A stretch of DNA of 6,798 bases from a virus. Taxonomy: Duplodnaviria; Heunggongvirae; Uroviricota; Caudoviricetes. Shown here in pieces: positions 3,001 through 6,000 of this stretch. The stretch is from the IMG/VR virus record IMGVR_UViG_2695420649_000009; one strand, given 5' to 3'. Numbering within the stretch: position 1 is the first letter of the stretch; each line of letters starts with the position of its first letter. The position numbers were made by a program.

Positions 3001-6000
3001 CACACCGACTGAGTGCATATTCTGTCAGCAATTCTGTTGCCCGCTCTCTGTCATTCATACTAATGCCCATTTTCCCAAGGAACGCAGAAACCCCCATCTC
3101 AGCCCGATTCTGTGTCATGCCCTGCGCGGCCATCACATCAGTGATACTCAGCGCATCTTTCGACGTTGAGGCCGATGCATCAGTCAGGCCGGGGGATTTT
3201 GGGGAGTAGTATTTCGGTAAATCTTCCAGTTTCATTTTTTGACCTGCCCTTCAAGCATTATGGGATAAATCTTCACCCCCAGACGTCCACCAGATACTGG
3301 CTGAGCACGAACGATATTGATTTCATCAAACTGCTCATCGTCCATTAGCAACCCCGCATGCGTCAGCGCATCCAGCGGCGCTTTCAGAATATTGTCCAGG
3401 TCACGGCGGCGCTTATCCGGTGGTTCTGCAATAATTTTTATTGCCAACCTTCCGGACAGGCTTAATTTCAGCCGCTGCTGGCGAACAATAAGCGCCACTG
3501 CCCGGCGATAACGCTCCCCGGCTTTTGATACAAAATATGTGCTGCCACGACGACGCCAGTAAGTGTTCACCGTCGGCGGGTAAGGTAAAACAAATTCTAT
3601 GCGCTCGGTCATTTATGCTTTCCACTTCAGAACACCCGAATTTCTCGCGTGCATTAAAAAACGAATCAGCAACAACAGCTGACTGCCGTGTTTCTCTTCA
3701 AAATCTTTTACTCCGGCATGTAGTTCGTTACGGCATTTACGGCATAACGGAATAACAAACAAATCATCAGCCTTTGTTCCCATCCCTCCCAGTCCATGAC
3801 CAATGATGTGATGCGGATCATCTGCCTGATTGCCACACGTCATGCATTTCTGCGTTTTTACCCAGCGCGTGTATACAGGCATCTCTTCCCGTTGTGATTT
3901 CTGGCGCTGGAGATACTGAGCCGGTGACTCCGGATCAACGGCAATGCTGACCACCGTCTTTTCCTGTGGTGGGTTCTGTTGCTGGTGGACGTGAGGCAGT
4001 AACGCAATATTTTTTGTGCGCTGCTTCAGTATGCTGGTGGCTGTCTGCTCTCCCGGTATGATGTCGCTTTCACTGTACACAGAGCGAATTTTTTCCGCAC
4101 GCAACCCCAGCGAACGACGTAATACCGCTTCCGGTAGCGCGTCCGCCACCTGATTGCGGACCGCCCACCAGGATAATTCAGCCAGAGATAATTCACGCTC
4201 CTGCGTACCGCTTATTGCGTGACCGATGACGTCAATCATCCATGCTGACAGGTTTTGATGAGCAAGTTGCTCGAGTGATTCGGATGTCTGGTCACGCAGC
4301 TGGTTGTCGCAGTGCCAGCACAACACCATTGCGCCGGTACCATAACGGTGAATGACGGTTTCGCTGTGATGATAATCGCCGTGTGGCCACTGGCAGGATT
4401 TAATATGGCGCAACAGCCAGTCAGACAATGCACCAGCACCACCAGCAGCACGAATCACCCGTGCGTTACTGAAAAACGGCAGCAATGTTTTGTCTTCCAC
4501 CAGCGGCTGGCGAGCGGCAGGAACGACCCCGGACGGCAGATTACGCATGCTTTTTGGTTCCGGCTCCACCAGTATTCTGCCGTTATGGAATGCTGACATT
4601 GATTCACGGCCTGGCTTAACGATAACCAGACCGAGTTCCGGTACCAGAACAGGTCGAAGTAATACCCGCACATTACCTCCAGATCCGTTGCTGGAATGTG
4701 CGGGACGGACGCGTTGGCCGTTCGGAGTAAGGGAGCCTGACGGAGATTATCCAGTGACGGTAGTCGAGGCTAAGGGCTTTTTTAACCTCGCATCCGCGCC
4801 TGCGGTAACACTGAATGAGCCATTCGGCCTGTTCTTCAGTGCATGGGGGATGCTGGTACCAATCAGATTTAAATGCGTGAGAGCGCCGCCCGTGCCTGCT
4901 GGCAAAGACGGCTGAATTATCAGAATTGTGTAGTCTGGAAGGCAGTGGCTGACAATAGCGCCATTCTCAACGCGCACAGTATAGAGGCCATCTTCACTAA
5001 AAATTTCACGTAATTCTTCGATTTTCATCAACAGAATCCTTCCAGATAAATAGCACTCCCCTGTTCGGGGTCCATCCCTCTTCTCCCTGCGCGCTACTTA
5101 AGTATTTTTGATTCTATTCCGGCACCATCTAAAACTTCAAACGCGTTGAAAATAAAAACAAAAACCCGCCGAAGCGGGTTAAGTGTGGGTGCATTGAGGA
5201 TGCCTGACCCATCAGAGGTGGCGAGGGATTTCTCCCCCGCCTGGTCTCTTACTCCTCAGGTTCGTAAGCTGTGAAGACAGCGACCTCCGTCTGGCCGGTT
5301 CGAATTCGTACCTCGCAGAGGTCTTTCCTCGTTACCAGTGCCGTCACAATGACGGTTAAACAGATGACGATCAGGGCGATTAACATCGCCTTTTGCTGCT
5401 TCATAGCCTGCTTCTCCTTGCCTTTCGGCACGTAAGAGGCTAACCTAGATTTGCCGTTCATAGATTGAGCCTCAGATTAATGTTAAGCGTCTTGCCGGAC
5501 GCGTAATGTTAACTGGGGCTTTTCTCTATCTGCCTTTTGGTGTTCATGCCTGAGACAGATAGCCTCAAGCACCCGCTGCAATTCTACTTAACTCTCCTTT
5601 TCCCGCAAACCGTTTTTATCCCCAGCGGCAAATCGAATACACCACCAGCGCCACCGCCATCGCAATTCCTACCGTTGTTAATGCTTCAGGCCAGGTCATC
5701 GTAAAATATCCTCCACGCTTATCAGTCCGTTCCGCTCCAGATAACTCATCGCCTTATCCGGTAATTTGCAGTCTGGCTTCGCTTTCCTCAGTTGCCAGGT
5801 TAACTGCTTTACCAGCATGGTTAACTCATCGACCAGACGCTGATATCCCACTGGTTTGTATTCATGCAATTTACCGGCTGGCTCTGCTGCCAGCGATACC
5901 AGTGCGATTTCCAGAACAGCAATATCCATCTTATATGTGCGGATGATGTCATGGTCGATTGTGCCCGGTATGCACAGTCTCTGTGCTTCAATAGTCTCCT

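Follow-up and report, generated by a model that had tools for sequence, protein, structure and literature searches.

Probable fusion of a rem-like antirepressor gene with a phrog_1212 gene by a 250-bp deletion in Shigella sonnei prophage DNA

We found that two small prophage genes, one rem-like and one of the phrog_1212 family (here called gene B), have been fused by a 250-bp deletion in the 6,798-nt stretch of DNA analysed here (the window), a reading to which sequence comparisons lead us to give a probability of about 0.93. Directly seen were the deletion, its end points to the base, the fact that neither gene product remains intact, and the recurrence of the same junction over many assemblies; the deletion is a real inherited allele of Shigella sonnei prophage DNA, seen so far only in S. 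sonnei. Since 250 equals 3 × 83 + 1, the remnants of the two genes abut out of frame, and this explains the two-frame picture given of the locus in its preliminary description.

Both frames lie on the minus strand. The first belongs to a chimeric ORF (4747–5031) that opens with TTG 5031 or ATG 5028 and runs to a stop codon at 4749–4747, encoding 94 or 93 aa. The strong ribosome-binding site earlier ascribed to the ATG 5028 frame could be confirmed as a Shine-Dalgarno-like GGAAGGA (5037–5043, minus strand), read from the sequence 8 nt before that ATG and unchanged in the intact alleles of strains O103 and TUM10008. Counted from the ATG, the 93 residues consist of a Rem N-terminus and a further 64 codons, of which all but one (63) are read from gene B in the wrong frame. 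The second frame was open for 97 codons (4966–4676) and ended with a TAA at 4675–4673, with no ATG, GTG or TTG anywhere in those 97 codons; its lack of starts and its end had been correctly described before, while the number of open codons, then put at about 98, came to 97 plus the TAA. By our own arithmetic, with 3 of the 61 sense codons being starts, the chance of 97 start-free codons is about 0.008. The second frame is evidently not a chance ORF, because its residues 32–97 matched the whole phrog_1212 profile (positions 1–66 of 66) with an E value of 7.2e-35. It represents the 3' remnant of gene B (4673–4940, minus strand), extending from the last base of codon 4 to codon 92 and the TAA. 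The phrog_1212 family comprises small phage proteins of unknown function, of which intact gene B encodes one of 92 aa, and homologues were found in 3,146 of 5,426 complete Escherichia coli genomes. Searches of Pfam and NCBIfam using both frames as well as the intact homologues gave nothing, the Pfam set searched evidently being one without PF27490, and a sequence search of the PDB gave nothing for gene B and chance-level matches only for the Rem homologue.

When positions 4640–5100 (461 bases) were used as a megablast query against the 5,426 complete E. coli genomes, full-coverage matches at 97–98% identity were obtained, each listed one in two pieces and spanning 711 bases for the 461-base query. 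Pairwise alignment with E. coli O103:H2 12009 displayed a single clean 250-nt gap in the window with about 98% identity on either side, and the blastn coordinates placed the junction between window positions 4941 and 4940 (…CAGCCACTGCC|TTCCAGACTAC…), with the missing bases corresponding to positions 1661–1910 of the O103 locus (L001). These 250 bp are made up of 170 nt with rem codons 31–86 and the stop codon, a 69-nt spacer that folds into a hairpin and carries the ribosome-binding site of gene B, and 11 nt of gene B (ATG GCG CAA AA); both the ATG of gene B and the upstream GGAGAAAGCCG are thus located within the deleted segment. In O103:H2 12009 the two complete products are ECO103_RS07250 (WP_077625879.1), with 86 aa, and ECO103_RS07255 (WP_032156506.1), with 92 aa, the latter gene ending 1 nt before the start of the DUF968 gene. 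A second locus of the same genome had the identical two-gene arrangement and gave the same gap against the window, and the more diverged Qin prophage of E. coli K-12 also has two complete genes here. Because both of these loci show two genes, the two-gene state is best regarded as ancestral and that of the window as derived. We also considered the reverse, a short ancestral form into which 250 bp were inserted, which was rejected as the 250 bp complete two conserved ORFs, both of which the diverged K-12 prophage has too.

No microhomology or direct repeats were found at the end points of the deletion; the only 7-nt repeat, ATGGCGC at a spacing of 263, would give a different junction. The exact intact parent allele was not found among the sequences searched, the best match to the gene-B remnant being 97.4% identical, and the end points were thus deduced from close but non-identical relatives. 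Compared with the closest intact alleles the gene-B remnant had seven differences, four of them synonymous in the gene-B frame and three non-synonymous, and two of the three latter were also found in other intact alleles. These differences appear to be ordinary allelic variation that predates the deletion, with no sign of long decay.

The explanation first proposed for the locus was that of one ancestral gene for about 118 aa, disrupted by an indel of a single base somewhere from about 4915 to 4966. This would account for two abutting frames with the second lacking a start, as well as for those public records that mark a single 356-nt gene at exactly 4673–5028. All intact relatives examined were instead found to have two genes with separate starts, and with a stop codon and the 69-nt spacer between them, the window lacks 250 nt and not 1 nt, and the two halves match different families, phrog_340 and phrog_1212. 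The homologues consequently carry two ORFs with starts of their own and not one ORF collinear with both frames, and we give an indel in a single gene practically no credence. The interval proposed for the lesion nevertheless proved well chosen, with the true junction at 4941|4940 falling inside it, and there was, as also stated previously, no homopolymer at that site; a C5 run (4848–4852) and an A6 run (4778–4783) are found downstream of the junction and are not involved.

With regards to its distribution, the 31-mer across the junction, GTCAGCCACTGCCTTCCAGACTACACAATTC, was present in six IMG/VR contigs and gave zero matches in GTDB representatives and metagenome contigs. We also used a 44-mer centred on the junction (22 bases to either side), for which a megablast match is possible only with the junction present, and obtained zero matches in the 5,426 complete E. 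coli genomes and in phage records. The exact 93-aa chimeric protein was found in 965 index blocks and on 679 contigs, with all named members being S. sonnei, and it is catalogued as a hypothetical protein of that species (A0A8B4CJ38_SHISO, FORC11_1990). Moreover, the 356-nt segment with its junction was identical in 16 fetched and independently assembled loci (L004–L019), including contigs of 4.8 Mb. These loci matched the window at 99.0–99.97% identity where collinear, with L019 being a mosaic, and the identity of the window to S. sonnei assemblies was 99.8–99.97%. At least three flanking contexts occurred among the 16 loci, one having IS600 at window position 6414, one lacking that IS600 and one, the mosaic, having another module downstream of 3921. 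The attribution to S. sonnei rests on the names that databases attach to the identical protein, together with the near-identical contigs.

A sequencing or assembly artefact, in the form of a collapsed or mis-joined contig, would be in line with the absence of the junction from complete E. coli genomes and phage records, and the window does contain a masked run of N (2374–2415). The same junction and 356-nt segment were however found in all 16 loci from different assemblies, the chimeric product occurs on 679 contigs, and the end points have no repeat able to collapse an assembly. Sequencing error is excluded by this recurrence, and an artefact of either kind has a vanishingly small probability; of the two options raised earlier, recent pseudogene or sequencing error, it was the pseudogene that held. 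The deletion event is likely to be recent and of a single origin. Variants of 63, 85, 92 and 118 aa within the same protein cluster fit 1-nt changes in the ORF and come from individual assemblies, with two of these changes being located in the C5 and A6 homopolymer runs. Annotation of the allele was found to be inconsistent: several records (L010, L011, L012, L018 and L019) give a 356-nt gene, a length that is not a multiple of three, at 3001–3356 or 1458–1813, corresponding to exactly 4673–5028 of the window, and other records give only a 282-nt chimeric ORF. A search of the literature on antirepressor pseudogenes in S. sonnei prophages found nothing specific.

We also considered a programmed -1 frameshift at the heptamer A_AAA_AAG (4777–4783, minus strand), by which the chimeric frame and the gene-B frame would be joined into a 118-aa product. 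The heptamer conforms to X XXY YYZ when read in the zero frame of the ORF from 5028, slippage by -1 at this point would lead into the gene-B frame, and a 118-aa ORF of such shape (P0011) was seen in one Logan assembly, where it arose through a 1-nt change in the A run. This phase was nonetheless made by the deletion, with the same bases in intact alleles being the Val-Lys-Lys codons of an independent gene. The heptamer has no Shine-Dalgarno-like element 10–14 nt upstream, merely a GAGG at 2 nt, and it is located in the loop of a predicted hairpin and not ahead of one. The product would moreover consist of 54 out-of-frame residues, from codon 30 to the shift site, followed by just the last 34 residues of gene B. 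As neither dnaX-type stimulatory elements nor a conserved trans-frame product could be seen, we judge the heptamer incidental and programmed frameshifting to be very improbable, in agreement with the preliminary description, which had seen no support for programmed slippage.

The fusion of two genes by a deletion also agreed with the content of the upstream part. The 5' remnant of the rem-like gene (4941–5031, minus strand) comprises 30 codons from TTG 5031, or 29 from ATG 5028, plus 1 nt, and over its first 29 codons counted from the ATG (MKIEELREIFSEDGLYTVRVENGAIVSHC) the chimeric ORF is genuinely of the Rem family. The phrog_340 profile matched this ORF with an E value of 1.3e-7 over residues 1–30 only, the rest being out-of-frame sequence. 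The remnant is collinear with ECO103_RS07250 as well as with rem of K-12 (b1561), and PF27490:Rem is recorded in a public index for the product of the window. Similarity to the Rem family (PF27490 / phrog_340) over its full length of about 83–86 aa was lacking, with codons 31–86 deleted, while the position is that of the family, with hokD and the DUF968 gene (ydfU) on either side in a lambdoid prophage, as in K-12 Qin and O103. The O103 homologue, which is intact, shares 73% identity with K-12 Rem and had its best phrog_340 match over residues 30–84 (E 4.4e-22). That homologue (L001 1570–1830) was in fact matched twice by phrog_340, by its N-terminal 30 residues and by residues 30–84, and as the two stretches overlap in profile positions the intact protein may contain an internal repeat (EDGLYTVRVENG / TDGFILRANEF).

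K-12 Rem has been shown experimentally to be an antirepressor that relieves the repression exerted by DicA on the dicBF promoter 165-fold; producing it ectopically leads to DicB/DicF-dependent filamentation and is toxic via dicBF (Ragunathan et al. 2023, J Bacteriol 205:e00129-23, PMC10448788). K-12 Rem is the only member of the Rem family that has been tested. With 29 of about 85 residues left, the Rem remnant is presumably null, and Rem-type antirepressor activity would have gone with the C-terminal two thirds, which are the more strongly conserved part. Upstream of the remnant, a scan for sigma-70 consensus gave a promoter candidate, TTGAAG-18-TAGAAT (5111–5140, minus strand), which at one site found against 0.9 expected by chance is weak evidence for a promoter. 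As Gifsy antirepressors are SOS-controlled we also searched for LexA boxes; none was found near the rem remnant, and the count over the whole window was at chance level.

The gene-B remnant, in turn, has kept its conserved core but probably cannot be initiated and would also be null, with its ATG, first 11 nt and ribosome-binding site gone and with no substitute start present. Taken together, we propose an ancestral order of hokD, a rem-like antirepressor gene, the 92-aa gene B, DUF968, rusA and Q, from which a single illegitimate-recombination event without microhomology would have removed 250 bp, thereby taking away the last 56 codons and the stop codon of the rem homologue, the 69-nt spacer with its hairpin and the ribosome-binding site of gene B, and the first 11 nt of gene B with the ATG. 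Ribosomes starting at the surviving rem start would then translate 29 Rem codons and, as 250 is not divisible by three, continue out of frame through gene B until the stop at 4749–4747, while the true frame of gene B would stay open and start-less. Directly downstream lies the DUF968/ydfU-like gene (3613–4671, minus strand; Pfam DUF968, E 2.6e-62), with its GGAGG (4680–4676) and GTG start (4671) kept at the extreme end of the gene-B remnant, in a stop/start arrangement with gene B that is also present in O103. As both of these signals are retained, DUF968 should still be translatable from its own GGAGG/GTG. The reading frame upstream of it now ends 75 nt before the gene, compared with 1 nt in intact alleles, and because the chimeric ORF ends that far upstream, translational coupling of DUF968 to gene B may be lost.

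The window as a whole is a late-regulatory stretch from what remains of a lambdoid prophage of the Qin/Stx type, with IS600 on either side. A fragment of IS600 covers 6414–6798 and is followed on the minus strand by three small ORFs, sok RNA (5399–5574) and the mok/hokD ORF (5249–5461), with 5249–5574 constituting a complete hok/sok type I toxin-antitoxin module. A terminator-like hairpin of hokD (5180–5163, minus strand) is located just before the promoter candidate. Beyond the fused genes and DUF968 come RusA (3232–3612, minus strand) and the antiterminator Q (about 2309–3130, minus strand), in which the masked run comprises 42 N and has inflated the listed ORF to 308 aa, compared with 273 aa in L006. 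Then follow, all on the minus strand, a 65-aa ORF between Q and a DNA methylase, the methylase itself (786–1844), three tRNA genes (496–745; Arg-tct, Arg-tcg and a CAT-anticodon tRNA, the counterpart of which is annotated as tRNA-Ile in E. coli TUM10008) and the STnc100 sRNA (230–419; full-length Rfam match, 123.6 bits). STnc100 adjoins the three tRNAs, and the methylase lies upstream of all of them, an order shared with Stx-type prophages. A second IS600 end, inverted, is found at 1–51, so that inverted IS600 at both window ends brackets a prophage piece of about 6.4 kb; the copy at 6414 is missing from some loci that are otherwise identical. Pfam searches past the IS600 copies of L006 gave no matches to immunity genes, and no immunity region was found adjoining.

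It could also be asked whether the 93-aa chimera has an activity of its own, or whether selection in S. sonnei has favoured the loss of Rem and its neighbour, for instance because this would lock off a toxic prophage module. The allele is common in S. sonnei and has persisted over at least three flanking contexts, the promoter-like site, ribosome-binding site and start of rem have been kept, and the toxicity of ectopic Rem via dicBF in K-12 (PMC10448788) would give a ground for selection. The 16 copies were, on the other hand, without sequence variation and hence uninformative on selection, and IS600 cuts the fragment off at either end, with no adjoining immunity region found. As S. sonnei is a young clone with many IS elements and pseudogenes, drift is sufficient as an explanation. 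Selected loss or an active chimera therefore seems very unlikely to us; if true, it would make a small case of adaptive prophage domestication and not of neutral decay. For the fusion by deletion as such, the practical consequences are that the proper annotation of the locus is a pair of pseudogenes truncated by deletion, one rem-like and one of phrog_1212, and that this S. sonnei prophage fragment would have lost a Rem-type switch, which in the case of K-12 Rem controls a toxic prophage operon. The junction 31-mer could also be used as a lineage marker, being absent from every complete E. coli genome searched.

Comparing the locus with known systems, its closest complete E. coli relative, TUM10008 (L002 5220–7420), has a 2-kb insertion between hokD and rem consisting of two genes, one for an HTH-domain protein and one for a hypothetical protein, and the 3' end of its rem differs and is flagged as partial by PGAP; the rem region thus appears, from these alleles, to be a mosaic or an indel hot spot. 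The O103 pairs RS07250/RS07255 and RS08930/RS08925 share with the window about 98% nucleotide identity flanking the junction and the neighbours hokD, DUF968, RusA and Q, but differ in holding the 250 bp and in encoding complete proteins of 86 and 92 aa. K-12 Qin rem (b1561) has the same place between hokD and DUF968/ydfU, homologous first 29–30 codons and a conserved upstream ribosome-binding-site region, whereas the window holds the N-terminal third only, with the C-terminal 56 codons deleted, and cannot be counted as having a functional Rem. Likewise, the phrog_1212 ORF between rem and ydfU is intact in K-12, in contrast to the window copy lacking the ATG, first 11 nt and ribosome-binding site. 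In K-12 MG1655 this 92-aa ORF (L003 3807–4085, minus strand, about NC_000913.3 1644306–1644584; phrog_1212 E 1.7e-35) is without a feature in the RefSeq annotation table. With dnaX-type -1 frameshifting the locus shares an A AAA AAG heptamer, which is in zero-frame phase within the chimeric ORF, but without stimulators, with a phase made by the deletion and with no fused product conserved, this is a resemblance only. The locus is, in kind, not novel: it is a deletion pseudogene of an ordinary sort, specific to one lineage, in the remnant of a lambdoid prophage flanked by IS600.
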